Assembly (NCBI RefSeq): GCF_964194155.1
Contig: NC_135883.1
Location: 91,512,001 to 91,576,000, forward strand
From: Cetorhinus maximus
Taxonomy: Eukaryota
Reading direction: 5' to 3'
Length of the DNA stretch: 64,000 nucleotides
Below are positions 28,010-64,000 of this stretch, piece after piece. Made by a program: the position numbers and the translations under genes. The notes below the pieces were generated by a model. The model did no database searches. It had not been told where the DNA came from and saw nothing but the letters and a program-made list of their open reading frames with translations. Each line of letters begins with the position of its first letter. The stretch's first letter is position 1.

Positions 28010-31000
28010 GGGGAGGCAGTGGTGTAGTGGTATTGTCGCTGGACTAGTAATCCAGTGACCCAGGGTTCAAAACCCGCCACAGTAATAGAAATCTGCAATT
28101 AAAAGTAGAACGATGACCATTGTTAACTGTTGCAAAAACACAACTGGTTCACTAATGCCCTTTAGGGAAGGAAATCTGCCGTCCTTAACAGGCCTGGTCT
28201 GGCATACCTGTGACTCCAGATCCAAAGCAATGTGGTTGACTCTTAAATGCCCTCTGAAATGGCCTAGCAAGCCACTCAGTTGTAAGAAACTGCTACAAAG
28301 TCACAAAAAAGGAAATGAAACTGGACGGACAACCTGGCATCAACCTAGGTACCGGAAATGACAACGGCAAACTCAACCCTGTTGTCCCTGCAAAATCCTC
28401 CTTACTAACATCTGGGGGCTCGTGCCAAAGGTGGGAGAGCTGTCTCAAAGACTAGTCAAGCAACAGCCTGACATAGTCACCCTCACGGTATCATACCTTA
28501 CAGCTAATGCCCCAGACACCACCATCACCATCCTTGGTTATGTGCTGTCCCACCAGCAGGACAGATCCCGCAGAGGTGGTATACAGTCAGGAGGGAGTTG
28601 CCCTGGGAGTTCTCAACATCGACTCCAGACCCCATGAAGTCTCATGGCATCAGGTCAAACGTGGGCAAGGAAACCTCCTGCTGATTACCACGTACCGCCC
28701 CCACCCCCCTCAGCTGATGAATCAGTGCTCCTCCATGTTGAACACCACTTGGAGGAAGCACTGAGGGTGGCAAGTGTGCAGAATTTACTCTGGGTGGGGA
28801 ACTTCAATATCCATCACCAAGAGTGGCTCGGTAGCAGCACTACTGGCTGAGTCCCAAATGACATAGCTGCTAGACTGGGTCTGCGGCAGGTGGTGAGGGA
28901 ACCAACAGAGGGAAAAACATACATGACCTCATCCTCAATAACCTGCCTGCCGCAGGTGCATCTGCCCATGATGGTATCGGTAGGAGTGACCACCACACAG
29001 TCATTGTGGAGATGAAGTCCCACCTTCACATTGAGGATACCCTCCATCGTGTTGTGTGGCATTACCATCGTGCTAAATGGAATAGATTTCGTACAGATCT
29101 AGCAACTCAAGTCTGGGCATCCATGAGGCACTGTGGGCCATCAGCAGCAGCAGAATTGTACTCGAACACAATCTGTAACCTCATGGCCCGGCATATCCCC
29201 CACTCTACTATTACCATCAAGCCAGGGAATCAACCCTGGTTCAATGAAGAGTGCCTGAGGGCATGCCAGGAGCAGCAACAGGCATACCTAAAAATGAGGT
29301 GTCAACCTGGTGAAGCCAAACAGCATAAGCAGCAAGTGATGGAGAGAGCTAAGCGATCCCACAACCAATGGATCAAATCTAAGCTCTGCAGTCCTGCCAC
29401 ATCCAGTCGTAAATGGTAGTGACCAATTAAACAACTCACTGGAGGAGGAGGCTCCACAAATATCCACATTCTCAATGACAGAGGAGCACAGCACATCAGT
29501 GCAAAAGATAAGGCTGAAGCATTTGCTATAATCTTCAGCCTGAAGTGCAGAATGGATGATCCATCTCGGCCTCCTCCGGAGGTCCCCAGCATCACAGATG
29601 CCAGTCTTCAGCCAATTCGATTCACTCCACATGATATCAAGAAACAGCTGAAGGCACTGGATACTGCAAAGGCTGTGGGCCCTGACAATATTCCTGCAAT
29701 AGTGCTGAAGACTTGTGCTCCAGAACTTGCTGCGCCCCTGGCCAAGCTGTTCCAGTGCAGCTACAATACTGGCATCTACCCCGCTATAAGGAAAATTGCC
29801 CAGGTATGTACTGTGCACAAAAAGCAGGACAAATCCAGCCTGCCCCATCAGTCTACTTTCGATCATCAGTAAAGTAACGGAAGGGGTCATCAACAGTGCT
29901 ATCAAGCGGCACTTGCTTAGCAATAACCTACTCACTAGTGCCCAGTTTGGGTTCCGCCAGGGCACCCAGCTCCTCACCTCATTACAGCCTTGGTTCAAAC
30001 ACGGACAAAACAGCTGTACTCGAGGTGAGGTGAGAGCGACTGCCCTTGACATCAAGCCCGCATTTGACAGGGTGTGGCATCAAGGAGCCCCAGCAAAACT
30101 GGAGTCAATGGGAATAAGGGCAAAAAATCTCCACTGGTTTGAGTCATACCTAGCAGAAAGGAATATGGTTGTGGTTGTTGGAGGTTAGTCATCTCAGCTC
30201 CAAGACATCACTGCAGGAGTTCCTCAGGGTAGTGTCCTCAGCCCAACCATCTTCAGCTGCTTTATCAATGACCTTCCTTCCATCATAAGGTCAGAAGTGA
30301 GAATGTTCACTGATGATTGTACAATGTTTAACACCATTTGCAACTCCTCAGATACTGAAGCAGTCCATGTCCAAATGCAGGAAGACCAGGACAATATTCA
30401 GGCTTGGGCTGACAAGTGGCAAGTAATATTCACACCACACAAGTGTCAGGCAATGACAATCTCCAACAAGGGAGAATCCAACCATCACCCTTTGATGTTC
30501 AATGGCATTACCATCACTGAATCCACCACTATCAACATCCTGGGGGTTACCATGGACCAGAACTGGACTAGCTATATAAATACTGTGGCTACAAGAGCAG
30601 GTCAGAGGCTAGGAATCCTGTGATGAGTAACCGACCTCCTGACTCCCCAAAACTTGTTCACCATCAACAAGGCAGAAGTCAGGAGTGTGATGGAATACTT
30701 TTACTTCCCTGGATGAATGCAGCTCCCACAACATTCAAGAAGCTTGACACTGTCCAGGACAAAGCAGCCCACTTGATTGGCACAAACATTTACTCCTCCA
30801 CCACCAATGCACAGTAACAGCAGTGTGTACCATCTACACGCTGCACTGCAGGAATTCACCAAGGCTCCTTCGACAGCAGCTTCCAAACCCACGACCTCTA
30901 CCATTCAGAAGAACAAGGGCAGCAGATAGCTGGGAACACAACCACCTGCAAGTTCCCCTCCAGGTCACTCATCATCCTAACTTGGAAATATATCGCCATT

Positions 31001-31186
31001 CTTTCACTGTTGCTGGGTCAAAACCCTGGAACTCCCTTCCCAACAGCATTGTGGGTGTACGTATAGCAAATGGACTGCAGCGGTTCAAAAAGGCAGCTCA
31101 CCACCAACTTCTGAAGGGCAACTAGGGACGGGCAATAAATACTGGCCCAGCCAGCGAAGCCCACATCTCATGAATGAATAAAAAAA
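28010..31186 (+). mobile_element. Near full-length EN-RT LINE (second family, CR1/L2-group-like) with a tRNA-like 5' head
   Basis: APE endonuclease remnants (QQPDIVTLT, LLITTYRP, WVGNFNIHHQEWLG), RT remnants (GPDNIP, ALDIKPAFDRVWH, MFTDDCT), a 3' tail and an A-run. There is no room for an ORF1. It splits an older CR1 3' fragment (~27830-28009 and ~31187-31420). Confidence 0.88.
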
Positions 31187-31730: not shown

Positions 31731-32785
31731 AGATACTATCCTGGCAACGTATTTTTACAAATGTTGCACCATATAGGTGTTGGATGTGTCATGTGGTGAT
31801 AAACAAATGCCAATCCCGTTGCAGTAAAACCTGTAGATTAAGAATTTAGGAACTTTCTGAAAATAGTTTTACTTTCTCTGAGAAAATATATTTTCTTTTT
31901 GCAGATAACATTTTGATGGATTTTATCTCATGTTTTAGTTTCTGGGGTAGTGGAGTTGTAAGGAGCACATAACTGATTTCTTGCAGGAGAGTCACTAAGG
32001 AATAGTAACTATTTTTAAATAATATACAGCACTTTAACCCTTGAATGATTGATATTCTCCCTAGTTTTTTGCAACGAGGATGTAAGAAGTGGGGTAGGGG
32101 GTGGGCTTGCGAAGAGGATCAGAGTTATTTGAAGCTCCTATTGTAACACAAGGATGCGGGAATTGAGGCCGGTGGCGATCCATCCACCGACTCCACCCCG
32201 ACCCCATTGCGGATCAATTCCCAGGCCACACTAGCATGCAGTAGTGATGACCTCTTTGCCACACTAGCATGCAGCAATGCTTACTCCTGGGCCACACTAG
32301 CATTCAGCAATGCTGACTCTCAGGCCACACTAGCATGCAGCAATGCTGACCAACAGGCCACACTAGCATGCAGCAATGCTGACCAACAGGCCACACTAGC
32401 ATGCAGCAATGCTTACTCCTGGGCCACACTAGCATGCAGCAATGCTGACCAACAGGCCACACTAGCATGCAGCAATGCTGACCAACAGGCCACACTAGCA
32501 TGCAGCAATGCTGACCAACAGGCCACACTAGCATGCAGCAATGCTTACTCCTGGGCCACACTAGCATGCAGCAATGCTGACTCTCAGGCCACACTAGCAT
32601 GCAGCAATGCTGACCAACAGGCCACACTAGCATGCAGCAATGCTGACTCCCGGGCTACACCAGTATGCTGCAATGCTGACCCCCCGGGCCATACCAGCTT
32701 GCAGCAATGCTGACTCCTGATCCAAACAAGCATGCGGCAATGCTGACTCCTGGGCTACACTAGCATGTGGCAATGCTGACTCCCA

Positions 32786-33066
32786 GGTCACAGAGTAAAG
32801 GGAAGACCTTTTAGAACAGAGATGAGGAGAAACTTCTTTAGCCAGAGAGTGGTGAATCTATGGAATTCATTGCCACAGAAGGCTGTGGAGGCCAGGTCAT
32901 TGAGTGTATTTAAGACCGAGGTAGATAGGTTCTTGATTGGTAACAGGATCAAAGGTTACGGGGAGAAGGCGGGAGAATGGGGTTGAGAAACTTATCAGCC
33001 ATGATTGAATGGCGGAGCAGACTCGATGGGCTGAATGGCCTAATTTCTGCTCCTATGTCTTATGGT
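32786..33066 (+). mobile_element. CR1/HER1 3' end inside the minisatellite (copy A)
   Basis: gagatgaggagaaacttc...aatggcctaatttctgctcctatgtcttatgg. Confidence 0.85.
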
Positions 33067-34282
33067 GATCCCCAGGCCACACTAGCATGCAGAAACGCTG
33101 ACTCCTAGGCCACACTAGCATGCGGCAATGGTGACTCCTGGGCCACACTAGTATGCAGCAATGGTGACTTCTAGGCCACACTAGTATGTAGCAATGCTGA
33201 CTCCCGGGTCACACTAGCATGCAGCAATGCTGACTTCTAGGCCACACTATCATGCAGCAATGCTGACTCCTGGGCTACACCAGCAATGGTGACTTCTAGG
33301 CCACACTATCATGCAGCAATGCTGACTCCTGGGTCACACCAGCATGCCGCAATGCTGACTCCTGGGCTACACCAGCAATGGTGACTTCTAGGCCACACTA
33401 GCATGCAGCAATGCTGACTCCTGGGTCACACCAGCATGCAGCAATGCTGACCCCCAGGCCACACCAGCATGCAGCAATGCTGATTCCCAGGCCACACTAG
33501 CGTGCAGCTATGCTAACTCGTGGGCCACACCTGCATGCAGCAATGATGACTCCTGGGCCACACCTGCGTGCAGCAATGCTGACTCCTGGGCCACACCTGC
33601 ATGCAGCAATGATGACTCTCAGGCCACACTAGCATGCAGCAATGCTGACCAACAGGCCACACTAGCATGCAGCAATGATGACTCTCAGGCCACACTAGCA
33701 TGCAGCAATGCTGACCAACAGGCCACATTAGCATGCAGCAATGCTGACTCCTGGGCCACACTAGCATGCAGCAATGCTGACCCCCAGTCCTCTCTAGCAT
33801 GCAGCAATGCTGACTCCCGGGCCACACCAGCACGCGGCAATGCTGACTCCCAGGCCACACCAGCATGCAGCAATGCTGACTCCCAGGCCACACCAGCATG
33901 CAGCAATGCTGACCCCTGGGCCACACTAGCATGCAGCAATGCTTACTCCTGGGCCACACTAGCCTGCAACAATGCTTAGCCCCGGGCCACACCAGCATAC
34001 AGTAATGCTGACTCCCGGGCCACACTAGCATGCAGCAATGCTGACTCTCAGGCCACACTAGCATGCAGCAATGCTGACCACCAGGCCAAACTAGCATGCA
34101 GCAATGCTGATCAACAGGCCACACTAGCATGCAGCAACGCTGACTCCCGGGCTACACCAGTATGCTGCAATGCTGACCCCCCGGGCCATACCAGCTTGCA
34201 GCAATGCTGACTCCTGATCCAAACAAGCATGCGGCAATGCTGACTCCTGGGCCACACTAGCGTGTGGCAATGCTGACTCCCA

Positions 34283-34563
34283 GGCCACAGAGTAAGGGGA
34301 AGACCTTTTAGAACAGAGATGAGGAGAAACTTCTGTAGCCAGAGAGTGGTGAATCTATGGAATTCATTGCCACAGAAGGCTGTGGAGGCCAGGTCATTGA
34401 GTGTATTTAAGACCGAGATAGATAGGTTCTTGATTGGTAACAGGATCAAAGGTTACGGGGAGAAGGCGGGAGAATGGGGTTGATAAACTTATCAGCCATG
34501 ATTGAATGGCAGAGCAGACTCGATGGGCCGAATGGCCTAATTTCTGCTCCTATGTCTTATGGT
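34283..34563 (+). mobile_element. CR1/HER1 3' end inside the minisatellite (copy B)
   Basis: Near-identical to copy A with the same breakpoints, about 1497 bp downstream. Confidence 0.85.
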
Positions 34564-37500
34564 GACCCCCAGGCCACACTAACATGCAGAAACGCTGACT
34601 CCTAGGCCACACTAGCATGCGGCAATGGTGACTCCTGGGCCACACTAGTATGCGGCAATGGTGACTCCTGGGCCACACTAGCATGCGGCAATGGTGACTC
34701 CTGGGTCACACTAGCATGCGGCAATGCTGACTCCTGGGCTACACCAGCATGCAGCATTGGTGACTTCTAGGCCACACTAGCATGCAGCAATGCTGACTCC
34801 TGGGTCACACCAGCATGCAGCAATGCTGACTCCCAGGCCACACTAGCATGCGGCAATGCAAACTCGCGGGCCATACCTGCATGCAGCAATGCTGACTCTC
34901 AGGCCACACTAGCATGCGGCAATGCTGACCAACAGGCCACACTAGCATGCAGCAATGCTGACTCCCCGGCCACACTAGCATGCAGCAATGTTGACCAACA
35001 GGCCACACTAGCATGCAGCAATGCTGACCAACAGGCCACACTAGCATGCTGCAATGCTGACCCCTGGGCCACACTAGCATGCAGCAATGCTGACTCCCGG
35101 GTCACACCAGCATGCAGCAACGCTGATTCCCGGGCCACACTAGCATGCAGCAATGCTGATTCCCGGGCCACACCAGCATGCAGCAATGCTGACTCCCAGG
35201 CCACACTAGCATGCTGCAATGCTGACCCCTGGGCCACACTAGCATGCAGCAATGCTGACTCCCTGGTCACACTAGCATGCAGCAATGCTGACTCCCAGGC
35301 CACACCAGCACGCGGCAATGCTGACTCCCAGGCCACACCAGCACGCGGCAATGCTGACTCCCAGGCCACACCAGCACGCGGCAATGCAATCTCCTGCTTA
35401 AAACCAAATGTAATTATGTCACAGCTGGTGGTCTGGAGTTGAAATTTGTAAATTGTATGAGGTGGTGGGGGTTGTTGCGGGGCATAGTGGTCCGGCCGTT
35501 GCTGGACTTGCAGGGAAATTATCACCAGCAAAGTAAACGAGCAATAGGGATGGGGCGGGGGTTGACTGGATAGTCCATGATTGGGAGAGGGCTTCTGCTC
35601 AGGCCGCAGAGGCCCAAATTATCCTTGTGGGGCCAAGAGGATTAATGACATTGATCTGGAGCTCCTGTGCCCAGGTTACAGCCTGACACAAGCTTTTGCT
35701 AGTGGCTTTGAGATTGTATGGGTCTTGGTTGGAGCTGTTATAATTGAATGCATGTCCTGATGACCTCCTGGGCCATTTGCTGGTAGCTGACAGGCCCTCT
35801 TCTGCTGGGCGGGGTGACTATCAGCTCCATGGAGGTGACCTCCCTGCAGCCATCCACGGGTCCTATGGAGCTGGAGGAACTGCTTGCCTGGCCCCTCTGG
35901 TTTTAAATTTTTCACTTACCTGCCTGACGGCACCTCCAATTTTGGACACTCTCTTGTTCTTTGACCTGCCTCAGCAGCACCCACTGGGAGCTGCTGAGGT
36001 TATAGAGAGTTGACCCTCTGATTGGATCAGCAGCATCCAGCTCCCACCTGCACCTGATAATTAGATGGCGAGTCTGTAGGTGGCCAAATAGGAAGCTGCT
36101 TCCAGGAAAATTGCTGAGCCAGTCCAACCACTTGCAAGGGAGGGCTTGAGACCCTCATTTGGTCCTGATTTTGGGATCCTGAAGCCCATGGGAAAATCCT
36201 GCCCAAGGTTTCATATTTTCAGGTTCAAAGAATTGAGTTTCATGCCTAATTCGTTTGCTCCAAACTTCCCTATTTCAGATAACATTCTTTCAGGGCTTCA
36301 CTTACCATGGATTATAAGCACAGACATAGATGTTTCCAATTCAATGTAAGGGACTCAGGGAGTGCTTTAAGATGCAATGGAAAGTCAAATTGTTCCCTGG
36401 CCAATTATCTACTAAAACCTTTGTAAGACAAAGTCTTACATCAGACATTAGATGTTGTTTTGGCATCTGTATTTCATCTATTTCTCTGGTTAGATAAAAC
36501 AGCAGATGTTTTTGATATTTGTTCTGTACTTGTTTTCAATCCCTGCCTGGCGTATTGCTAAGGAATGAAACTAAATACAACACAAAGAAGCACAATATCA
36601 GCTGCAAGTATATATCTGAGACCAAAATTGGTTCTGTCGATTATCTTACAGTGTCTCTTATTCTTGTCTTCCACTGTGGGGGAGCTGGGGGTGGAGGTTG
36701 CAGACTTTCAACTCTAGATAACATAGAACCTAAGGCAGTGGTGTAATGGCAGCTTTAGAACTGGTTTATTACACATTATGTGCAGGTGTCAAGGCATTCT
36801 CCCCCAGCTCATTTTTATTTTTGACACTTTGGCATATTTTTCAGCATTTTGAAATAAACCTTTGAGAAACATATATGTAAGTATTTTTAATGTGTTTAGT
36901 CTACATAGGAGAATATATCCCACTAAGCTGAACAAAAAAAGATGGTGAATTATGTGTCTAATGGCAATCTGCTATTAACATCCTGCCCAACACCTATCTT
37001 TGAACCATCACCAGGGAAAGCAGATTAATTTTAGTACTTATTGTCACGTAACTATAGTCGCTGACCTTAAAGTAATGTGCTGTGTTCTTTGAGGTGTTTC
37101 TGAGAGATGTGATAAGGTTCTTTATAAATTTAAGCCTTTCTTTTTAGATACACAAGAGGATGGAAATTGGTTTGCTTTGAGTCTATTTTCCTGGCATAAA
37201 TTGGGTGTAAAGCATTTAGCAGTGGGCTGGCCTGTGTTGAATCCACATAGGTGTTGATCCTACTGCTAAATTTGTGGGGCCCATTCATCAGGTCTCTGGT
37301 CTTAGGCCTGAGAATTTGTTACTAGGGACCTAACAACTGTTGAAGAATCCCTTGTGGAAATGAATCAGTGATGAGTAGAGCAACCATCAGGTCAGGGTTT
37401 TTCCAATGGATAACAAAAGATATGTTTCTGAAGTATTTTTAAAAAATTCCTCCCTGTGGATCCAGGATATACAGGAGGGGTCCCCCAGCTCCAACGCTGT

Positions 37501-40270: not shown

Positions 40271-40679
40271 CATCAAATCCACACTTTAAATGGGACAGAC
40301 TAAAGTCAGAGCTAGCACCCAAAACTTGTACCTCATCCTCTCATACGGCTGGTGCAGGCCCTCTACACTCTCCATCGAGCTAGGGTTGACCTTCTGGCTT
40401 TATGGGAATGTCACTGTCACTGGGTCAAAATCCTGGAGCTCCCTCTCTAACAGCACTGTGAGTGTTCCTACACCACAGGGACTGTAGCAATTCAAGAAGG
40501 CAGCTCACCACCACCTTCTCAAGGGCAATTAGGGATGGGCAATGAATGCTTGACCCAGCCAATGATGCCCATATCCCATTAATGAATTAAAATAAAAGTA
40601 TTGAGAGATGTATTGATCCAAGCGATAACAGATAGTGATGGTAAATTCTACTGCTCTCAATGGTCCAGAGTGCCTCATG

Positions 40680-41188
40680 GGTTCATTTTTGTAGGAAGAA
40701 TGCGGAGAGACAATATAAAGTATGCGGTACAGCTCTAAAGTGTGTGCAGGAGCAGAGGGACCTGGGTGTATATTTGTATAAGTCATTAAAGGTGGCAGGA
40801 CAGGTGGAAAGAGCAGTTAATAAAGCATACAGTATCCTAGGCTTTATTAATAGGGGCATAGAGTGCAAGAGCAAGGAGATTATGCTGAGCTTGTATAGGA
40901 CACTAGTCGGACCTCAGCTGGAGTATTGTGTACAGTTCTGGGTGCCATACTTTAGGAAGGATGTGAACTCATTGGAGAGAGTGCAGAAGAGATTTACAAG
41001 AATGGTTCCAGGGATGAGAAACTTCAGTTATGAAGATAGATTGGAGAGGTTGGGACTGTTCTCCTTGGAGAGGGGAAGGCTAAGGGGAGATTTGGTAGAG
41101 GTGTTCGAAATCATGAGGGGCTGGATGGAGTAGATAGGGAGAAACTGTTCCCGTTTGTAAAAGGATCGAGAATGAGAGGGCACAGATC
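40680..41188 (+). mobile_element. CR1 LINE ORF2 C-terminal fragment
   Basis: EQRDLGV...LYRTLVGPQLEYCVQFW...ERVQKRFTRM...RLRGDL. Confidence 0.88.
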
Positions 41189-43200
41189 ACTGTACACAAT
41201 ACTCCAGCTGAGGTCCAACTAGTATCCTATACAAGTTCAGCATAACCTCCTTGCTCTTGCACTCTATGCCCCTATTAATAAAGTCTAGGATACTGTATGC
41301 TTTATTAACTGCTCTCCACCTGTCCTGCCTCCTTTAATGACTTATGCAGATATACCCAGGTCCCTCTGCTCCTGCACACCCTTTAGAGTTGTACCCCTTA
41401 CTTTACATTGTCTCTCCATGTTCTTCCCACCAAAATGAATCACCTCACATTTCTCAGCATTGAACTTCATCTGCCACCTATCTGCCCACTCCACCAACTT
41501 GCCTATGGGAAGAATTTTCCTGTCGGTGAGCGGGGGCGGGGCCCGCTCGCTGACGCGTAAAATGTCGCGCGGTGATGTTGGGCGGGCGTCCAGACATCAC
41601 CGCGCGCCATTTAGGCGACTGTGCACCCACCGAACTGTCAAAGGCCTCTTAAGGCCATTAACAAAGTAATTAAAGCTGTTAAGAAAGCTACCTGTCCAAT
41701 CTTAAGGTTGGGGGGCAGGCAAAGAGCCCAGGAGGCCTTCGCACTTTTCATGAAACCTCATCCACGGCGGGCTGAGGTTTCATGAAGGGTTCATTAATTA
41801 AATAAAATTTTTTGAAAAAATTAATGGACATGTCCCAGCTCATGTGACAGTTTCACATGAGGGGTCATGTCCTTAAAATTTTTTTTAACCTTTATTACAT
41901 TTTTCACAGCTTAAACTAATCTCCCTGAGGCACCCCTGGGGAGATTTCTGTGCTTTTTCATGCACATGCGTGTAAGAGCACAGGCCTCAACTCAGGGAAT
42001 CCCCCCCGCCTGCACAGGGAGCACTCAGTGCTTCCGGGTGAGCGTCACGCTGTGCGGGCCTTAGTTGGCTGGCCCACGTAAAATGGCGGCGCGCACCCAA
42101 TTGGCGGTGTCGATCGGGTTTGTGCTCCCCACACAACCGCCCCGACGGGGGGCAAATTCAGCCCTATGTCCATTTGAAGTTCTACACTTCCTCCTCACAG
42201 TTTTACAATGCTTCTAAGTTTTGTATCATCTGCAAACTTTGAAATTGTCCCCTGCACATCAAGATCTAGATCATTAATATATATCAGGAAAAGTAAGGGT
42301 CCCAATACCGACCCCTGGGGAACTCCACTATAAACCTTCCTCCAACCTGAAAAATACCCATTAACTAACACTCGCTGTTTCCTATTACCCAGCTAATTTT
42401 GTACCCATGTTGCTACTGTCCCCTTTATTCCATGAGCTATAACTTTGCTCACAAGTCTGCTGTGTGGCATTGTATCGAATGCCTTTTGGAATCCATGTAC
42501 ACCCCACATCAATAACATTGCCCTCATCAACCTTCTCTGTTACCTCTTCAAAAAACTCCACCAAGTTAGTTAAACACGTTTTCCCCTTAAGAAATCCATG
42601 CTGGCTCTTCCTAGTCAACCCGCCTTTTGCCATGTGACTATTAATTCTATCGCAAATAATTGTTTCTAGAAGCTTCCCCCTGACTGGTCTGTAATTGCTG
42701 GACTTATCCTGACAACGGTTTTTGAACAAGCACGTAATATTTGCAGTTCTCCAGTCCTCTGGCACCTCCCCTGAGTCTAGGGGAGACTGAAAGATTATGG
42801 CCAGTGCCCCAGCAATTTCTACTCTCACTTCCTTCTATATCCTTGGACGCGTCTCATCCAGTCCTGGTGCCTTGTCAATTTTAATTACCAACAGTTTATC
42901 AAAGACCTGCTCCTTATCAATTTTGACCCCCTTCCAGTGACAGTTTCCTGCTCTGTCACCATGCCCTGGGCAGCATCTGCTTCCTTGGTAAAGACAGACG
43001 CAAAGTATTTATTTAGCACCTCAGCCATGCCCCCTGCCTCCATGTGTTAATTCCCTTTTTGGTCCCTAATCGGCCCTACTCCTCCTTTTACCACTCTTTT
43101 CCTATTTGTGCACTTATAGAAGACTTTGGGATTCCCCTTTTTGTTGGCTGCCAGTCTTTTCTCATAATCCCCCCTTGCCTCTGTTATATGCTTCTTCACC
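41189..43200 (-). mobile_element. CR1 LINE ORF2 fragment, minus strand, interrupted by a MITE
   Basis: PEDWRTAN, SQHGFLKGKTCLTNLVEFFEEVT and the RT core on the minus strand. Its left part is the reverse complement of about 40685-40935. Confidence 0.88.
41507..42164 (-). mobile_element. PIF/Harbinger-type MITE, copy 2 (inverted)
   Basis: TIRs gggaagaatttt and caaattcagccc with a 3-bp TSD (TAT). The CR1 sequence resumes on both sides. Confidence 0.85.
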
Positions 43201-43554
43201 TCCCCCAATTAAGTTGGAGGGCGGAAGGGGCTGACGTAGGATTCCCGGCCACTGGCGGCAGGATGCCAGTTAATGCCAGTATGCTGGATCTCTCATGGGT
43301 ACATTGCCACCAGCTGCCACTGCTCCCACACACACTGGTGGCATGAAAAGCTGCCAGTCTCTAATTGGCCAGCAGCTCTCAGCAGGCGGGACTTTCGCTG
43401 CTGGGGCCCTCAGTCAAGGGGAAGGCCCAACGATAGCCACCTAAATGCTTAAAGTGCACTTGATTCCGTCGAGCCTCCCCCAGGGACTGACAGGGGTTCC
43501 CCGCCAGTTTTCCAATCAATGGCAAGACCCCTGTTGGCTTGACAAAATTCCGGT

Positions 43555-44760
43555 CAATGTTGTAGTTGTTGGAAGCTAATCATTGCATCTCCAGGCCATC
43601 AGTTCCACAGGCAAGCAACATGAATCCAACCATCTTCAGTTGTTAAATGAATAATGTTCCCACCATCATAATATCAGGACTGTTTGCCAATAAAAATTCC
43701 AGTGATCAGCTCCAATCCAGTGCTACACAGGATTGGTAGCGTAATAAGCTGTGCTACTGGACTAGTAATTCCGAGCTCTACACTCTGTTGAAATCCCACC
43801 ATGGTAATTTGTTAATTTGAATTCAGTTAAAAAATAATATGTAAATTTTAAAACGTTGGCATGAGTATAAAACTGATATGAAGCTGTCCAATTGTCATAA
43901 ATATCCAATTGATTTAGCAGCATCCCTTTGAAAAGAAACATGTTTCCTTACCCAGTCTGACGATATATGACTCCAGTCCCACATCAGCATGATTGACTCT
44001 TAAGTGGCTCATCAAGCTTGACACAATCCATAACAGAACAATTCACCATATCAGTTACAGGGCAACTAGAGTTAATGCCAGCCTTGTGAGTGACGTCAAC
44101 ATCCAAGGAATTAATTAAAAAACCTCGATCAGTAGAAAGCCATTGCCCCCCAACCTTCAATGGCACCACCATCACTGAGTCTCCCATCATTGACATAATT
44201 GCCGTTGACCAGAAGTTTAACTGGGCCAGTCATATCAGCATTATGGGAAAAGGCTGTGTGCTCAATTCCTGACCCCCTCAAAGCCTTTCCTCCTTCTACA
44301 AGGTCCATCTTTAAAGTATGGCAGAATACCTGTCTGGGAGAATGCAGTTGCAATGATACTCAAGAAACTTGACATCATCCAGAACAAAGTAGCTTTCTTG
44401 ATCAGTCCTTCTACCACTGGACTCAATATCCAGCCCTTCCATCACTGTAGTGTGCCCTGTGGCTGTAGTGTGTAGGATCTACAGGATACATAGGACCTCC
44501 CTCATGCACAACTTCTCTCACCAAGAGCAAACAGCGACAGTGTTACGGGAATAACACCACCTCCAAGTTTCCCTCCAAATTGCACACCATCATTTCTTGG
44601 ACATTGCTTCATTGTCATGGTTCAATATGCTGCATGGGAGCACCCCAAGGATTATAGCATTTGAAGGAGAAGGCCCACTATTTCCTTGTCAGGGTAATTA
44701 CAGAAGGGTGTTAATTATTGCCTTGCTGGTGTCATTGGCATCCCAACAAGAGGAAAGAAT
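43555..44760 (+). mobile_element. Old, decayed second-family LINE fragment with a nested tRNA-headed SINE (~43730-44121)
   Basis: RT-like remnants lie on both sides. The nested piece has ctactggactagtaat...gaaatcccacc, ccttacccagtctg..tgactccagtcccac and the family tail plus A-run. Confidence 0.55.
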
Positions 44761-45759
44761 CACTCCTTTTCCTGTTCTAATAACAACTTTGTGACTGACC
44801 TTGCGTTATTGTCATTGGGCTTCAGAGCTGTTTTGTAGCAAATTTAATGTGATATTTGGATGGTAAATAGAGGCTGGGTATATTTTTATTATTGGTGTAT
44901 TTATGATTCAGAACAAAGATTGCAACTTTTTTCTCACAAACAGTATTGAAATTGATTCTATGAAATACACAGGCTGCAGATATAAAATTAAAGCAGTGAA
45001 ACACCACTGTGTGGTGTATGAGGTAATTAAAGCAATCCCAATTAGAAATGTGGCAAATGTTTAGACCGAGATATTTCTACTATGGGAGACTTTTCCTACC
45101 CACTGAAACACATGATGTGCCTTTCTGCTGCTGCACGGTATCTTATATGAAACAAAGGAAGCACAGTTCTTCACTGTACCAATAAACCACAAAGGAACAA
45201 GCAACACATCAGTGCAAAGGAGACTTGTTCATTAAGTCTGCCAGTTTCTGGGTTTTTTTTAATTTCATCATTTGGGACCCATTATGACATTTAACCAATT
45301 GACTGATGTCATAACAGCAAATTGGTTGCTGTATTTTCCTGCATTATAACAATAATTGCACTTCAAAAGTATTTAATTGGCTGTAAAGAGCTTTGGGACA
45401 CCCCGAGGAGGTGAAACGTGCTACATAAATGCAAGTTCTTTCCCTTTAATCAGTTACAGTATTCAAATAGTGTGGTAAGGCCACTCATTTTGACAAGTAC
45501 AAATGAGGGGGAGGATAGGAGCTAGGATCATTACTAGTATTCTGGATTTTAATTTGCTACTGATGAAATTTCACCCAAACTCTTTGTAACCAGAATGATT
45601 AATGCGATGTGACACAGACAGAAATGAAAAAAAGTTCAGAGAAATCTGATTTCAGAGCTTAATTTCCCTTGATAGAGCATGATGCAATGCATTCACATTA
45701 ATTTACTTTGTGTCTTATTTTCCTCCAATTGATTGCCTTTTCATTTTAAACAAGTTAAC

Positions 45760-47618
45760 TTCTTTTCAATTCTTTCACGGGATGTGGACGTCGCTGGCTA
45801 GGCCAACATTTATTGCCCATCCCTAATTGCCCTTGAGAAGGTGGTGGTGAGCTGCCTTCTTGAACAGCTGCAGTCCATATGGTGTAGGTACACACACAGT
45901 GCTGTTAGGGAGGGAGTTCCGGGATTTTGACCCAGCGACAGTGAAGGAATGGCGATATATTTCCAAGTCAGGATGGTGTCTGGCTTGGAGGGGAACTTGC
46001 AAGTTGTGGTGTCTCCATGCACCTGCTGCCTTTGTCCTTCTAGGTGGTAGAGATCTCTGGTTTGGAATGTGCTATTGGAGAAGCTCTGGTAATTTGCAGC
46101 AGTGCGTTTCTAGATGGTATACACTGCTGCCGCTGTGTGTCGGTGGTGCAGGGAGTGAATGTTTAACACGGTGGATGGGGTACCAATCAAGTGGGTTGCT
46201 ATGTCCTGGATGGTGTCCAGCTTCTTGAGTGTTGTTAGAGCTACATTCATCCAGGCAAGTCTAGAGTATTCCATCACACTCTTGCCTTGTGACTTGTAGA
46301 TGGTGGACAGGCTTTGGGGAGTCAGAAGGTGAGTCACTCAGTGCAGAATTCACAGCCTCTGGCCTGCTCTTGTAGCAGAGTATTTGTTCGCTGGTCCAGT
46401 TTCTGGTCAATGGCAACCCCCGGGATGTTGATAGTGGGGGATGGTAATGCTATTGAATGTCAAGGGGCAGTGGTTAGATTCTCTCTTGTTGGGGATGGTC
46501 ATTGCCTCCACTTGTGTGGCACGAATGTTATTTGCCACTTATTAGTTGCAGGTCTGGCTGCATGTGGACATGGACTACTTTAGTGACTGAGGAGTTGTGA
46601 ATGGTGCTGACCATTGTGCAATCATCAGTGAATATCCCCACTTCTGACCTTGTGATGGAAGGAAGGTCATTGATGAAGCAGCTGAAGATGGTTGGGCCTA
46701 GGACATTACCTGAGGAACTCCTGTGGTGATGTCCTGGAACTGAGATGATTGACCTCCAACAACCACAACCTTCTTCCTTGGTGCTCAGTATGACTCCAAT
46801 TATTGCAGGCTTTTCCCTCTGCTTCCAGTTTTACTAGGGCTCCTTGATGCCACACTCTGACAAATGCTGCCTTGATGTCAAGGGCAGTCACTCTCACCCC
46901 ACCCTGGGGGTTCAGCACATATGTCCATCGTTGGATGAAGGCTGTAATCAGGTCAGGAGCTGAGTGGCTCTGGCGGAACCCAGACCAACCATTAGTGAGC
47001 AGGTTATTGCTGAGTATGTACCACTTGATAGAACTGTCAGTGATTCCTTCCATCACTTTGCTGATGATCAAGAGTAGACTGATGGGGCGGTAGTTGGCCA
47101 GGTTGTATTTGTCCTGCTTTTTGCGGACAGGACATACCTGGGCAATTTTCCACATTGCCAAGTAGATGCTTGTGTAGTAGCTGTACTGGAATAGCTTGGC
47201 TCGGTGCCAAGCTAGTTCTGGAGCACAAGTCTTCAGTACTATTGCTGGAATATTGTCAGGGCCCATAGCCTTTGCAGTATCCAGTGCCTTCAGACATTTC
47301 TTGATATCATGTGGAATTAAGTGAATTGGCTAAAGACTGGCATCTGTGATGCTGGGGACCTCGGGTGAAGGCCAAGATGGATCACCTACTCAGCAATTCT
47401 GGCTGAAGATTGTTGCGAATGTTTCAGCCTTATCTTTTGAACTGATGTGCTGGGCCCTCCCATTATTGAAGATGGGGATATTTGTGGAGCCTCTTCCTCC
47501 TGTTATTTGTTTAATTGTCCACCACCATTCGTGACTGGATGTGGCAAAACTGCAGAGCTTAGATCTGATCCATTGGCTGTGGGATCGCTTAGCTCTGTCT
47601 ATTGCTTGCTGCTTCCGC
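45760..47618 (-). mobile_element. 5'-truncated second-family LINE, minus strand
   Basis: GPDNIPAIVLKTCAPELA, ANYRPISLL and ALDIKAAFVRVWH, with the tail at 45760-45850. Confidence 0.9.
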
Positions 47619-49608: not shown

Positions 49609-50426
49609 ACCACTCAAGCTCAAGTGGCATCTCATCCTTCAAACCAAACAGACCTCAGATTACCATCCCCACAGCCCATGTCATGCCTTCCACCTCCAAC
49701 TCTTCATCAACTAGACCAAGACATCAGGACAAAACTGCCTGTGCTAAATGTAATATATCCCTGACACTGCCTGGCAAGCCAAAAAACTTTATTGCACCCA
49801 AAGCTTCTTTAGACATGAAGGACCCCAGACCCATCAGGAAATGGTCATCACTCTCCAAACTCATTGGTGCAGGGAAGTGTAACCCTGAGTGTGAGGCTAC
49901 TGGGAATGTGGATTCTGTAAACAGTATGGCAGATCTATCCAACTGCAATGTGGAGCCATGCACTTATGGAGTAAATGAGCTGGATATTTTTACATATCAC
50001 AATATGAATCATTTGAGAACTGAAGACACAAAGAGTTGGGGTACATGTACCAAAGAGCCCACCCAGAACCAGTCTTCAATTTCCATTGGGCAATACAGAT
50101 TTGAGAATTTTTATAAAGGTGCTGGGGACTCTTCTTTTCCAACTACCACACCCAGCAAAAACCACTTAGATTTAACGTTCAGTGCCTTACGTGCCACCAA
50201 GCCAACCTCAGATGACTGGGAGGCTTCTGGACAAAGACAGAGTTTTATGTCGATGAAACACCAACCTGTTTGTGGGGCTACAGCACCATCATCCCTGAGG
50301 ACACAGTTGTGGCTTAGTGACCAGATGCAAACCAATTCTCTTGACTTCAGACCTGCTGAAGAATCATGTGATTGTCAACACAAGCACCAGCTGGAACAGC
50401 TGAGACAGGAAACTGACCCAATACAG
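49609..50426 (+). CDS. CEP85L: Large internal coding exon of centrosomal protein 85-like (probably the equivalent of mammalian exon 3)
   Basis: Polypyrimidine tract plus AG acceptor (tctctctctctag|AC) at 49607-8 and CAG|GTAAGC donor at 50426/7, with an open frame of 818 nt (phase 1 in, phase 0 out). The translation has motifs I recall from CEP85L: DHSSSSG..SFKP, PTAHVMPS, SLDMKDPRPIRKWSSLSKL, DLTFSAL, LRTQLWLSDQ. Confidence 0.93.
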
Positions 50427-54959: not shown

Positions 54960-56650
54960 AGGGTGTCCAACCCAGGGGCTAAAAGGACCGATGAAATTAA
55001 GGAAATTAATATCAACAGAGAAAAAGTATTGGAGGAACTGTTCTGTCGGTATTTAATTGCAATTAAATACTGACAAATCTAACAAATCCCTGTCTACACC
55101 CTAGGGCTCCAAAAGAGGTAACTGCAGAGATAATGAATATGACTTGACAACATTCCTTGAATTTGGGAACAGTCCCATTAGATTGGAAGTTGGAAAATAT
55201 TACACCACTTTTTAAGAAGGGGAGAGAAAATTGTGAACTGCAGGCAGGTTAGCCTAACATCAGTTGCTGAGAAAATGCTGGAATCTATTATTAACAAAGC
55301 CTTAACAATGTACTTAGAAAAGCATATTATGATTAGAACAAGTCAATATGGTTTTATTAAAGGGAAGTCTTGTTTGACAAATTTATTAGAGTTTTTTGAG
55401 GATGTAACCAGGAAGATAGATAAAGGGGAGCCAGTAGATGTCGTCTACCTGGATTTTCAAAAGGCATTCAGTAAGGTGCGACATAAAAGGTTACTAGGAA
55501 AGATATGAGCTTATGGAGTGGGGGTAATATTTTAGCATGGATAGAGAACTGGTTAATGGATAGAAAGCAGAGAGTGGGCATAAATGGGGCTTTTTCAAGC
55601 TAGCAGGCAACGAATAGTAGAGTGCCGCAAGGATCAGTGTTAGACTCTCAGATATTTTCAATCTATATTAATGACTTAGATGAAGAGACAGAGAGTAATG
55701 TATCTAAGTTTGCTGATGATACCAAGCTAGGTGGAAAGGTAAGCTGTGGGGAGGACACAGAGAGGCTGCAAAGAGATGGAGACAGGTTAGGTGAGTGGGC
55801 AACAAGATGACTTATGGAGTAGAATGAAGAGAAATGTGAAGTTATTCACTTTGGTCATAAGAATAGAAAAGCAGAATATTTTTAAAAATGTTTGAAACTT
55901 CTAAGTGTTGAACTTCAAAGAGACTTGGGTGTGCCCATACAAGGAACGCAGAAAGTGAGTATACAGATGCAGCAAACAAGTAGGAAAAACAAATGGCATG
56001 TTGGCCTTTATTGCAAGGTGATTGGAGTACAAGAATCCAGAAGTCTTGCCACAATTGTACAGGGTTTTGGTGAGACCACATCTGGAATACTGTGTGCTGT
56101 TTTCGTCTCCACATTTAAGAAAGGATATACTTACATTGGAGGCAGCACAGTGAAGGTTCACTAAATTTGTCCCTAGGATGGGTGGGGGGGTGGGGTGCGG
56201 GCTTTTGGGGGGTGGTTGTCCTATGATGAGAAGCTGAGTAAATTGGGCCCATAATCTCTGGAGTTTAGAAAAATGAGAAGCAATCTCATTGAAACCTAAA
56301 AAATCCTGAAGAGACTTGATAGGGTAGACGCTGAGAGATTGTTTTTGCCAGTCAGAGAATCTAGAACACGGGGGCACAGTCTCAGAATAAGGGGCTGATC
56401 ATTTAGTACTGGGATGAGATGAAATTTCTTCACTCAATGGATTGTGAATAATTGGAATTCTCTACCCCAGAGGGTTGTGCGTGCTCCATGCTTAAGGCTG
56501 GGATGGACAGATCAGGGAATTAAGGGATATGGGGAGTGGGTGGGAAAATGGAGTTGAAGTCCAAAGTCAGCCATGATCATACTGAATGGCAGAGTAGACT
56601 TGATGGGCCGTATGGTCTTCTCCTGCTCCTGTTTCTTGTGTTCTTGTACG
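54960..56650 (+). mobile_element. 5'-truncated CR1 LINE
   Basis: KGKSCLTNLLEFFEDVT, VYLDFQKAF, PQGSVL and SKFADDTK motifs, plus the CR1 3' UTR. Confidence 0.9.
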
Positions 56651-59423
56651 TTCTGAAGCATTGGGAAAAATTAAAAACGACTTGTGGTCATAGCTGTCAG
56701 GCCACCAGTGTGGAGGGGGCACACCTCCACAGCAAGGTTTGCGGCTTTGGCTGTGTCTGTCACATCCCATAGCGGGTCTATACTGGGGTGATTGAATGGA
56801 GGCTTTGGTGGCAACCCCACCTCCCCCCCACCACTCCCCTTCCCCCAGTCTGTTGCCAGGGTGTTGCCTTTAGTTAAAGGCTAGACTCCAGACTCACCCG
56901 TGGCCTACCTTCTGTCAGGAAGATTGTGGCAGTGTCATTAACGTTGCCCCAATTGGTCCATTAATGGACATGTTTGGCTACCCACTGCTGCTGGATTTCC
57001 TGGAGGTGGGAACATATTGGATAGCTGATCCGATGTGTTATTTTTCTTTGCTCCTGGTCTCACCTCCTAACCCATCTCTGTGGGACCGGGAATAATCAGG
57101 CTCATAAATTTCTCCCAATCTTGACAAATTTTACAATTATAAATACAGAGTAGAATGAGTTGCCTAAGAAGAAACCATTTATTGATCAGAGATACAGGAG
57201 TTAAAAGAGTGAAATTTTGCACTTTGATTGTATCTAAATTCTAGTTGCTCAGGGAAAGTTAACATGGTGACAAATACTCCATCTGTTGTAGTTAGAATTT
57301 CCTGAGCATTATTTTTAAAAATTTAATTTCTTTGAAAACGTGAAGTGATGATGTCATGTTGACACACATGACCAGGGTTGACAAACCTTGGAAAGCGTTA
57401 CAAATTTGAAGCAATAGGATAATTCCTCAATACCTCAAATTTGGAGAAACAACTTGCATAGTGTGAGCATTGGTCATTTCTGCACTGGAAAATGATAGGC
57501 TTACTGCTTGTGTTTTTCCAGTGCTCATTTGCAGCATGTGAGGCATCTTGCCATGGGTGAGGATCAGAAATCTACTCTTGTTAACTCCTTAATGTATAGC
57601 CTTAACCTGCACCTCCCAGTGTTTACACAGAGACAATCCAATTCCCTATTAGCAGTGCCACCAATTGTGGAAGCCTAGACTTTGGCAGCCATGCTGTAAA
57701 ATAAGTGGTATCAAAATTAAATGAGGCTGTGCCTAAAGGCTATCCCCTCCAAAGACAACAGCCATAAATGGCAAATATAAATGCTGCTTACCTACATAGG
57801 CTAGTAAGTATAATGCCCTTCCCATTACTGGCTGCAGTGTCTTTCCCACCTATCAAAGAAGGTCTGCTAGCCAGAAACGAAATTACAAAATGCAAGTTTC
57901 AGGTGAGATCACAAGTATATTTGTGCAAATGCTACTTCGTTGTTTCTCTGATGCTAAGGAATTTATCCCACAATATAAAAGGGGTAATTTCACAGTGCTG
58001 AAATACCCCCAGAATCCCACAGGATCTTTGGTATTCTCTTTGTGTAGTAATTTTACAATATCGAGCACATAAGGTAACATTCCTTCATTTCTATTGCGTG
58101 ACCTCTGAAAGCAACATAAACTACAAATACGTAAAATAAACCTCATAGTATTACACTGAGACTAGAAGTTTAGTAAGGAGTTCATGGGTTAAAATCTTAA
58201 GTTTATTTTTGAAGGTATCACATCAGCTAAACGGTTTCCTTATAGAAGTGTAATTTGCATTGCATATTAAGAAGATTTATTCAGGATGTGTTACCATGAA
58301 GTGCACTAAATTTAGTGAAGCAGGCACAAAGCTTGAGTTTTCCTGAATGTGATATTCTTGTGCCCTTTTAACCTGTTCAAATGAGGCAATCAGTGCACAC
58401 TCCAAATTGCACTTTAGTTTGTGTCTGAATTGTCTTATGGTTACACTGTTGGGGGAGCTCTGGCTTCAGAATATCAGTACAGTTAAAGTCACAGCTTGGA
58501 TGCCAAAGGGTTGACATAATTCTACATTCAGTTTATTATGTGAAAACATGGGTATTGTTAATTGCAATTGGAGTTTATCTTCTAATTGCTATTTACTCCA
58601 GGCTGAATCTACAGTGTAAGGCATTGTCTACATTATAGATAAGAGTGTTCAAACAAGAGTGGTATGAAATGTACACTGGAATAAATCTACTTGTTGCAGT
58701 CAAACACTACCTTTGTCCCAAGCTATTTCACAAATGAGGAAAATCATGATAACAAGGGTGGACATCAATCAGTGGGGGGAGAAATTAGGATGGATGACCA
58801 TCAGATTAAGCCTAGGACATCATTAGTGCACTGACATTTTCTTCCACCTTGACTGCTTGAATTTAATACTGGATCTCTGAACACCAAGTTTAAAAATTTC
58901 AGTAGAGTCCGATAGCGAATAGTGCTTACGACTTTTAGATGTGTAATGGTGCCATTCCTCACTAATGTCATTTTAAAAAGCATTTTAATGATCCATCTGG
59001 GCAAACAAACATATCTGAATGATACCCTTATGCTCTACAAATGATTAACCCGCTGATTATTGATTAGCTAATATCTATAAATTCTGTTTGCACGTATTTT
59101 CAATGTCATTGCGAAAGGAATAATTTCAGGTGATTTTGGAATTATTGAGGATATACCTCGAAAATAATCATATGTTCAAAACAGCTTTTGTATCTCTTAA
59201 ATGGTTTGTCCAGGAAGCAGTTGGTACATTTTAAAAACAGCAGTTATTGCAAAGGTCCTTGTAGACATTGAATGTTGTTTTCTCAGGTGTGTAGCGCAGT
59301 AGGTCTCAGATTAGTGGTTGCATTTTGATTGGATTTTTCTTCCCAGATCTGAAAGCAATAGTAGCTGCACATAGTCTTCAGGACATAACTCGAAAGTACA
59401 GAACTCAGCAGAAGAAAATAAAA

Positions 59424-59525
59424 TCACATGAGCTTAACAATAATAAACATTAATAACAACACAATGATAATTAGAAGGAAATTCAGAATCAGGCTGAACC
59501 CGCGGTTGTTTGCCAGAATATCCAT
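59424..59525 (-). CDS. 33-aa phospholamban/sarcolipin-family (regulin) micropeptide MDILANNRGFSLILNFLLIIIVLLLMFIIVKLM
   Basis: Hand translation gives ATG at 59525-59523 in strong Kozak context (GGA ATG G) and TGA at 59426-59424. Residues 12-33 align without gaps to human PLN 31-52 (13/22 identical by hand) and end at the same position. The ORF is antisense in the intron after the large CEP85L exon, the known PLN location. Confidence 0.85.
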   Translation of the reverse strand: MDILANNRGFSLILNFLLIIIVLLLMFIIVKLM

Positions 59526-61492
59526 TCCGTCTTTTGCCTTGCACCAGTTGGCCTTGATGGTGTGCTGTGAATTAATTTGTATGTCTCGTAGAAACTATTG
59601 GTGCCTCCTTATTTTCGTTGCCTGAAGCACCTATGTTTGGCATATCAACCTTCTGTCATCTTTTACTTTTCCATTTCCCTGTTGAATAAATAAATATTTC
59701 ATGAGGATTTCTACACAAGCACAAAGGATATGCTCCTAAAATTCTACTGTCTGTCACCTGATCCCAGAGAGAGACTTTAGACTTATTTACAACTAATAAC
59801 TACACTTCAAAATGTAACTTGCATTGCTTATGGTTTTTAAACTTTTGGTCATCTGCCCTGCTATCTTCTTCTATGCCATGGTGTAAAAGATGTTATTTTT
59901 TGTATCGCTCTTATTAAGTGCCTTTGGACGTTTTGTTATGGTAAAGCTGCTAATAAATACAAGTCATTGTTTATACCTGTTACACTTTGTTTAACATTTA
60001 TTAATGGCATTCTTTTTCCTGGGTCATATGCACTTGAGAATCAGAAGCCCTATTTAAATTCTAACCCAGCTCTACCAGCTAATCTTTTACATGGAATTGT
60101 TTTTCTTGCTCTCTCCCTCTCTCTCTTTCTCTTTCCTCCCCTCTCCCTACCCTACCACAATTCACCAAACAACATAATTAAGCACATTGATATAAATTTA
60201 ACCATTTTTAGGCTAAACCTCCGCTTGAATTGCTTTTCTTTTGGTCGAGAAAGCTTACTGAGGATGAAAAGTTAATGCTTTCCAGACACTGCTTCACTTG
60301 CTACCATATAAAGTAATTTGAAAGGGCTCGTGCTTGGAGTGGAGGTACTTTTTACTCTTCATAGGGAGCCGTCCAAAAAACAATTTTATATTTTATTTTT
60401 AAATGCGGATGGATGAAGACTTTGCCCATTTAGGGTAAAGTGTAAAGCATTCTTGTAGCTGAGTAAATAGGAAACATGCCATAATATGTAAAACATTCAT
60501 TGTATGTCTGCTTTCCAATAATAATAATATAGCATAACATTACTTAGGGTTTATATGCAAATATGGTGTTGTGTATGATTTAGTTTCTGTTCTCCCCAAG
60601 TAATGAATGAATATGTTTTTCTTGTAATTCTGAATTCTTTAGAGTTGCGTACAAGAGTCTGCAGTGATTCTTATTCACAGTTTGAGGATAAATGATGCAC
60701 TAGCAATAACATTCTGCTTTTCCTGCAATATGTTGGATGCATTGGCCCACAAAATTTCCCTCATATTTAGATGCACATTAACTCGGATGTAAAAAAAAAT
60801 CAAAGCTTCATTTTACTTTATCAAACCTTTGCATTACACTCCAGCTGGGGACAGTTGGTTATTTAATGTGAAAAGATTTTTGAACCAAAAAAAAGCTATT
60901 ATCACACACTATAAATTGGAGAGAGCAATATTTACTGTTCCATTAATGCTGCATCTAAAATAACATTCAATTTTTGTTGACGTCAAGCAGGTTGAATACA
61001 AATTATAGTTAATGCATTATAATCATATTGAGTATAATTATCAGCACTGTGTTTATATTGTAATTTCCAAAATAGAAATTGTAGTGGATGCATTGTTCCT
61101 TTTTAAATCCTCAAATTTTCCTCCTTCCTCATAAACAGTCTCTCCAAGGGTGCAGTTTTATGGGCGCTAATAACTGTCTGGTACCCTTCACAGAGTTATC
61201 AATCTGAAAAAGTAATGTTCATCAATGTTGAGGCTATCACAGTTGCTGCTCTCACCCAATTTCCATGCGCAGTCTTCTCGAAGGACAACAGGGGTCAAAG
61301 ACTAATGGCTTGAACCTGATTTGTCATCCTTTGTGAATATGGGTGCCACATTGGCCTTTTTTCTAATCTAATGGTACCTCATCACTGTCCAGTCAGTGAC
61401 TTCCTTGGAATAATTATTAATGTCTCACAAATCTCTTCCCTAGTCTCCTACAGCATTCTGGGAGAAATACTGTCTATTCCTGTGGATTTATT

Positions 61493-63329: not shown

Positions 63330-64000
63330 CAGCCCCATCAGTCTACTCTCGATCGTCAGTAAAGTAATGGAAGGGGTCATCAACAGCGCTAGCTAGCGGA
63401 ACTTGCTTAGCAATAACCTGCTCACTGACACCCAGTTTGGGTTCCACCAGGACCACTCAGCTCCTGACCTCATTACAGCCTTGTTCAAACATGGACAAAA
63501 GAGCTGAACTCCTGAGGTGAACTGAGAATGACTGCCCTTGACATGAAGGCAGCATTTGCTAGAGTGTGGCATCAAGAAGCCCTAGCAAAACTGAAGTCAA
63601 TGAGAATCAGGGGGAAATCTCTCTGCTGGTTGGAGTCATACCTAGCAGAAAGGAAGATGGTTGTGGTTGTTGGAGGTTTGTTATCTCAGCTCCAGGACAT
63701 CACTGCAGGAGTTCCTCAGGGTAGTGTCCTTGGCCCAACCATCTTCAGCTGCTTCATCAATGACCTTCCTTCCATCATAAGGTCAGAAGTGGGGATGTTT
63801 GCTGATGATTGCACAATGTTCAGCACCATTCGTAACTCCTCAGATACTGAAGCAGTCCATGTCCAAATACAGCAAGACCTGGATGATATCCAGGCTTGGG
63901 CTGACAAGTGGTAAGTAACATTTATGCCAAGCAAGTGTCAGACAATGACCATCTCCAACAAGAGAGAATCTAACCATCATCTTTGATGTTCAATGGCATT
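63330..64000 (+). mobile_element. Second-family LINE RT fragment, running off the window
   Basis: ALDMKAAFARVWH and [20 protein letters not shown]...MFADDCT. Confidence 0.9.

Follow-up and report, generated by a model that had tools for sequence, protein, structure and literature searches.

Within the analysed window, a stretch of 64,000 nucleotides from Cetorhinus maximus, a minus-strand open reading frame (ORF) specifies a 33-residue peptide that is a third member of the phospholamban (PLN)/sarcolipin family. It is real and old, and not recognised so far. Taken as a whole, the evidence is best explained, with what we regard as moderate likelihood, by a third ancient jawed-fish regulin encoded in an additional last exon of PLN. 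The features concerned are given below in window coordinates unless stated otherwise; X6, X9, X11 and X16 are runs from organisms B, A, C and D, respectively.

Window 59424-59525, minus strand: ORF of the 33-residue PLN/sarcolipin-family peptide (translation, Pfam, PDB comparison, relatives, indel-free contigs).
Window 59526-59678, minus strand: upstream 153 nt of the terminal exon (covered by contigs of X6 to 59677 and of X9 to 59653).
Window 59679-59700, minus strand: predicted splice acceptor, a T-rich tract and CAG with the AG at 59680-59679 (sequence; X6 fit ending at 59677).
Window 58100-59423, minus strand: 3' UTR, minimum extent (continuous in X6 and X9, two pieces in X11, one piece in X16).
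Window 49609-50426, plus strand: large host-gene exon with AG/GT borders, 9.0 kb from the peptide ORF.
L020 1633-1830, minus strand: candidate PLN promoter and exon 1 (two CAGCTG, CCAAT, TATAAAT, an ATG-free exon and a strong GAG/GTAAGA donor at C5:91607633).

The peptide and its relatives

The ORF was translated as MDILANNRGFSLILNFLLIIIVLLLMFIIVKLM (33 residues, then TGA; 59424-59525 with the stop included), which confirmed the unlisted minus-strand frame proposed in the first-pass annotation. That annotation was also right about the strong start context (G at −3 and G at +4) and about the absence of an upstream in-frame ATG, as the stop-to-stop frame spans 59424-59594 and its single ATG is the start of the ORF itself. 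The window has 441 ATG-initiated ORFs of 25-60 codons, and this was the only one with a strongly hydrophobic 19-mer (hydropathy >=2.5) or the pattern L..NF..I...L. The peptide, at fewer than 100 residues, has a single predicted C-terminal transmembrane helix (19-residue hydropathy of 3.47 from residue 12).

The top Pfam family for the peptide was Phospholamban (PF04272), at 17.3 bits (E 0.0033) against a cut-off of 25; none of the 10 peptide-family members scanned reached this cut-off, and eight of nine relatives listed the family weakly. Only two PDB matches were obtained, sarcolipin and PLN, each weak (E 0.23 and 0.29). Compared with PLN chain 1zll_A, whose structure is solved, the peptide was identical at the positions of L31, N34, F35, I38, L42, I48 and V49, so that the previously claimed identity of inhibitory residues stands for this peptide; I48 is no family trait, position 48 being I in two of 13 rows and L in 11. 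A profile of five shark PLNs placed the peptide third among 9,652 frames (E 0.0019), behind PLN and sarcolipin.

Both of these relatives were located in the same genome. Outside the window, 13 kb upstream of the ORF and in the same orientation, a full 52-residue PLN with RRAS16 lies at G000:C5:91584645-91584800 (profile score 100.3 bits over positions 1-52); the shark PLN sequence P0002 is XP_078398321.1, labelled phospholamban of Cetorhinus maximus. For sarcolipin (PF05366), the sole match over the cut-off was at C7:53360853-53360942 (P0003), and the peptide ORF was not among the six matches listed. The peptide shares 14 of 33 residues with the neighbouring PLN and 9 of 29 with shark sarcolipin, and its in-register nucleotide identity to PLN is just 42 of 99; given such low identities it is no recent copy of either. 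In the shark PLN itself (C5:91584642-91584800, L002 1498-1656, minus strand), Ala17 replaces the CaMKII-site Thr in all five cartilaginous-fish rows, and position 49 at the end of the helix is Arg or Lys in four of the five, a position at which the short peptide keeps Val.

With PLN the peptide shares a transmembrane helix in register, a C-terminus at position 52, residues L31, N34, F35, L37, I38, L42 and L44, and locus and strand. It differs from PLN in being without the cytoplasmic helix, the RRxS/T site and the cysteines, in forming a separate clade, and in its own invariant traits, R-G ahead of the helix and V-K at 49-50. Its length, M-D start, L-N-F, Met at 45 and V-K at 49-50 resemble sarcolipin, whereas the luminal S-Y-Q-Y/E tail is missing and only 9 of 27 positions are identical. 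Orthology with PLN was rejected, since RRxS/T occurs in none of the 13 family rows, no in-frame ATG lies upstream and the PLN coding exon is another exon 13 kb away; orthology with sarcolipin was rejected as well, since the tail R/K-S-Y-Q-Y/E is missing (the peptide ends V-K-L-M) and the true sarcolipin is on C7.

A phmmer search of 1.84 billion representatives returned two matches. A word-index search with the 56-residue frame alone gave one candidate and none that scored, and profiles were needed for matches: seven of 1,994 longer and five of 4,818 near-length candidates matched. The exact peptide sequence was absent from the protein collection, and the ESM Atlas held one nameless cluster for it at 0.76, under the useful level. 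Besides the query, 12 clusters carry the peptide (near-duplicate cluster mates P0012 and P0018 were excluded from the counts), five of them from the bony fishes Aldrovandia, Albula, Conger, Electrophorus and Anguilla. All 12 have a 32-33-residue unit with an M-D start and a K-L/M-M/L end in register, and the residues above the Met vary freely. Over 27 positions the query is identical to its relatives at 18-25, to shark PLNs at 12-15 and to sarcolipin at 9. Across all 13 rows, 12 columns do not vary (in PLN numbering, L23, R27, G28, L31, N34, F35, L37, I38, L42, L44, V49 and K50). Neither RRxS/T nor a cysteine occurs in any of the 13 rows, in line with the earlier claim that the RRAS/PKA site is absent. 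Three rows continue past the peptide end with Trp, which may reflect TGA decoded by a prokaryotic gene caller. P0021 and P0023 form a divergent pair with V-L-A-F at 43-46, and their upstream residues diverge about 22 codons above the Met in a splice-like manner. The ORF is very probably a conserved coding ORF.

In a tree of 28 shared columns with sarcolipin left out, the 13 short peptides were split from eight PLNs with support of 100/100, to be read with the small number of columns and a bootstrap that was not fully settled. A shark-only duplication, in which the shark peptides were held with the shark PLNs, was rejected (p-AU 4.6e-6). The split and this rejection together place the duplication before the divergence of cartilaginous and bony fishes. 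No tetrapod was among the named matches, the search being too weak to prove loss.

The exon, its transcripts and the phospholamban gene

Of the 22 runs listed, none is recorded as RNA and 18 are guessed to be RNA. Their contigs carry neither strand nor tissue; those of four runs were aligned to L025:600-8000 (window position = L025 + 57500). A 2,816-letter contig of X6 fits window 58100-59677 at ~97% identity and has 1,210 letters beyond the compared stretch, and a 1,780-letter contig of X9 fits 58100-59653 at ~97% identity. Each has two one-base gaps, at 59045 and 59537, both outside the ORF. The base missing at 59537 lies 12 nt above the ATG and puts the upstream frame out of register in both contigs, which supports a start at the ATG of the ORF. 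In X16, one piece covers 75 ORF bases; it shows 23 substitutions in all and two gaps, the latter again outside the ORF; X11, a near letter-for-letter match to this genome, gave two 3' UTR pieces only, with the ORF not covered. Several candidate poly(A) hexamers occur in the 3' UTR region. The X6 fit ends at 59677, one base short of the exon start at 59678 predicted from the AG, and is followed by 30 further non-fitting letters, which are probably a branch remainder in a graph of 31-letter words. A plus-strand reading of this end was rejected, the GT after 59677 being missing. The peptide exon thus appears to be transcribed, and spliced at the minus-strand acceptor.

Three upstream ATGs (59674, 59659 and 59643) are present in the 5' part of the terminal exon and could lower translation of the ORF. 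The PLN-start-like ATG-GAA-AAG at 59674 was rejected as the remnant of a PLN head, being 149 nt from the ORF rather than 57 and running into an immediate stop. A CAC-rich stretch lies at 59555-59572 (minus strand), ~40 nt above the peptide ATG, and the elopomorph linkers (P0011, P0013, P0014 and P0015) have a common T-A-P-S at a similar distance above the Met; together these hint at a conserved 5' element.

The large exon that the first-pass annotation had placed about 9 kb before the ORF was found at that distance. We take it from its motifs and synteny to be an exon of CEP85L; a CC4_CEP85 match (38.3 bits) at G000:C5:91773994, ~200 kb further along this strand, supports the name. Pfam and the ESM Atlas gave no name for the exon itself, the Atlas listing peptidase C13 look-alikes at 0.81, under the useful level. 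The peptide exon, PLN exon 2 (CDS C5:91584642-91584800) and the candidate PLN exon 1, 23 kb further upstream of the PLN coding exon, are all antisense to and downstream of the host exon. The window also contains a long tandem array of ~33-36-nt units at 32147-35618, with open frames rich in ATLACSNAD and HCCMLVWP on opposite strands, a dispersed 130-nt repeat at ~59838-59972, and decayed fragments at 13195-14292, 24491-26485, 28089-31125, 40645-47329, 55182-56398 and 63516-63914 that we take from their motifs to be LINE reverse transcriptase. Mammalian PLN is embedded in CEP85L (PMC13619452).

Gene models of Aldrovandia, Albula and Conger place the peptide directly after PLN. In the elopomorph models P0011, P0013 and P0014, labelled hypothetical, PLN is fused in frame to the peptide through linkers of 27-28 residues, and two of the three fit a donor within the last PLN codon. 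The Electrophorus form (XP_035379861.1) has the peptide without the PLN frame and is filed by RefSeq as PLN isoform X1, and an eel record, P0022, begins at the peptide Met. Existing database forms of the peptide are an uncharacterised 32-residue eel entry, one mis-extended RefSeq isoform and the three fused models.

In zebrafish, the accessible text of PMC9770155 and its preprint describes an alternative terminal exon 3 of pln that is heart-only and Rbpms2-dependent (43-fold drop in rbpms2-null embryos); it is joined to exon 2 and, by that account, lengthens PLN by five residues. That text makes no mention of a second ORF in exon 3. According to the PMC4568590 supplement, the exons of ENSDART00000141159 measure 91, 303 and 2,201 nt, and its CDS takes up 155 nt of exon 2 and 19 nt of exon 3. 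In the PMC9770155 supplement, the forward primer of the exon-3 probe ends in ATG GAT CT. This reads M-D-L, the start of every bony-fish family member, and the chance of such a match is ~0.0008 for a 20-mer, a rough and post hoc figure for a zebrafish link of eight nucleotides. The zebrafish small-ORF table includes PLNs of 52 and 57 residues and no such peptide under the motifs searched.

The shark PLN has an AT/GTAATT donor after the same 155 nt of CDS, overlapping the last codon and stop and of only moderate quality. Joined to the exon start at 59678, it predicts a 56-residue PLN ending EMEK-stop, with the short ORF 153 nt into the exon; this 56-residue form was not present among seven shark PLN cluster members. 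Tandem CAC motifs, presumably of the Rbpms2 type, were not enriched around shark splice sites. The likeness to zebrafish pln-203 (ENSDART00000141159, SFHGM tail) lies in the donor after 155 nt of CDS, the long downstream terminal exon and the primer ending; the difference is that exon 3 is treated in the accessible literature as five added residues only. We infer both that zebrafish exon 3 is the same exon as that of the shark and which exon joins it in sharks; if the two exons are the same, expression in zebrafish would be confined to the heart. The peptide ORF is probably an exon of the PLN gene (terminal exon 3), and a bicistronic arrangement with PLN is marginally favoured. The unannotated tandem paralogue that had been offered as one option on the first pass is supported, as an old one common to bony fishes, and the evidence further points to an extra PLN terminal exon.

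It is unlikely that the peptide belongs to a tandem gene distinct from PLN, with a promoter and first exon of its own, giving a SERCA inhibitor independent of PLN splicing. Such a gene is consistent with the X6 contig, in which no exon upstream of the peptide exon is visible, with a TATA-like and MEF2-like site 5.3 kb upstream (L017 948-980), and with the one-exon zebrafish transcript ENSDART00000132012, which in the data available shares reads with the exon-3 isoform. However, the Electrophorus form is filed within the PLN gene, and in zebrafish PLN exon 2 is joined to exon 3 from a donor position that the shark shares. A private first exon at L017 850-980 was rejected, as all four runs were without cover at L025 7269-8000, where absence of contigs is no proof, and no joint appeared. 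The site at L017 948-982, 5.3 kb above the peptide exon, is possibly a muscle enhancer; in it a perfect motif, which we take to be of the MEF2 type, adjoins a TATA-like palindrome rich in AT.

Predicted translation and action on SERCA

To inhibit SERCA, PLN places its transmembrane helix in the M2/M6/M9 groove, which depends on Asn34, and PKA acting at Ser16 relieves the inhibition; the cytoplasmic helix is required for an increase in Vmax (PMC8396278). In the peptide family, this Asn (Asn34/Asn11) and L31, F35, I38 and L42 are invariant in 13 of 13 rows. We take F35, I38 and L42 to be SERCA-face positions of PLN, and Leu31 is given as another in the descriptions available. Inhibition by sarcolipin is described there as dependent on its luminal tail, which the peptide is without.

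Terminal exon 3 of the PLN gene would act as follows. Use of the donor over the last codon and stop of PLN would add luminal residues to PLN (SFHGM in zebrafish, EMEK predicted in the shark), and the same exon-3 mRNA would carry the short ORF further down; a form joining exon 1 to exon 3 may produce the peptide alone. The tail-anchored single-helix peptide would enter the inhibitory groove of SERCA (M2/M6/M9) via L31, N34, F35, I38 and L42 and lower its calcium affinity. Since the RRxS/T site is missing, PKA would be unable to release the peptide, and its amount, tuned by splicing or expression, would therefore be the control. As the inhibitory helix of PLN is kept and the remainder is missing, a PKA-insensitive drop in calcium affinity would be its likeliest action. 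Adrenergic control in the animal as a whole is kept via the normal PLN. Translation of the peptide, SERCA binding and inhibition are what we infer from the sequence, and that the peptide is a SERCA regulin is distinctly probable; it may compete or co-assemble with PLN instead.

It is quite unlikely that the peptide binds SERCA or PLN without inhibiting, by DWORF-like competition or by zipper oligomers that alter the free PLN pool. Positions 37, 40, 44, 47 and 51, which we take to be the leucine/isoleucine zipper of PLN, are L, I, L, I and L in both the shark peptide and PLN, with L37 and L44 invariant, and neither the PLN cytoplasmic helix nor the sarcolipin tail is present, all of which would suit such an action. 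Zipper position 40 varies, however (I in four rows, V in six, L in two and M in one), and Asn34 is kept in 13 of 13 rows, unlike in DWORF, whose lack of inhibition is ascribed in the descriptions available to Pro15 in place of Asn34.

It is very improbable that the frame is translated solely within a fused PLN of two helices, as the C-terminal one. The in-frame joins of P0011, P0013 and P0014 over 27-28 residues would be such products, and in eels a genuine two-helix form may exist, but these elopomorph models are labelled hypothetical, the spliced frame stops after SFHGM in zebrafish and would stop after EMEK in the shark, the one-base loss at 59537 breaks the upstream frame in two other organisms, and the Met is invariant and opens the eel record P0022. 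A decayed PLN duplicate, a chance hydrophobic ORF or a truncated PLN orthologue is hardly credible: the score is under the Pfam cut-off and the sequence as such is absent from the protein collection, yet, although only 42 of 99 nt match PLN in register, sharks and teleosts alike retain the frame, start and stop, and the truncated orthologue put forward on the first pass falls with the full RRAS16-bearing PLN at C5.

Origin and place in the family

The PLN and sarcolipin loci each have SLC35F exons upstream on their own strand (at C5:92.10-92.30 Mb and C7:53.13-53.16 Mb, respectively), an arrangement consistent with duplication of a single ancestral block. The peptide may have arisen either as a tandem copy of the PLN exon or as the sister of sarcolipin. 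Identity and tree lengths place it nearer PLN than sarcolipin, whereas profile score, in a comparison with no outgroup, favours sarcolipin: with a profile built from the 12 relatives but not the query, the query scored 58.3 bits, sarcolipin 17.7 and PLN 10.9. The profile scan found no second peptide in C7:53320001-53400000 (the 80 kb surrounding sarcolipin) or in the rest of the 9,652 frames, and the eel peptide as query gave a single genome match, at this locus.

Drosophila sarcolamban, called poly- or bicistronic in PMC11475943, is alike in that short SERCA-regulating peptides of the same family are concerned. It differs in that its peptides are described as redundant, whereas the shark would make a phosphorylatable long and a short one by alternative splicing, as proposed here. 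Tentatively, the ancestral PLN of jawed vertebrates may have made long and short regulins from one unit in the manner of fly sarcolamban; the short ORF would be sarcolipin's sister copy, retained on the PLN chromosome when the genome duplicated, the Rbpms2 splice in the fish heart would give a bicistronic mRNA with a PKA-proof brake, and mammals would have lost the exon. If this is true, the rbpms2-null calcium phenotype and the SFHGM isoform have been interpreted unaware that a whole peptide disappears with exon 3.

No description of the peptide was found in the literature searched, motif queries included, and subscription papers may bear on this. Two vertebrate descendants of the sarcolamban ancestor, PLN and sarcolipin, are commonly assumed; a third, kept since the split of sharks and bony fishes and probably inside the PLN gene, alters the history of the sarcolamban family. 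The peptide is a natural headless PLN with which to ask what the transmembrane helix does alone. Zebrafish is suited to testing this, as its exon 3 is heart-specific and is lost in rbpms2 mutants with calcium-handling defects, and the pln alleles of zebrafish cardiomyopathy models would leave the short peptide intact. The finding is also relevant to the way in which SERCA activity is set in fish hearts independently of adrenergic control.
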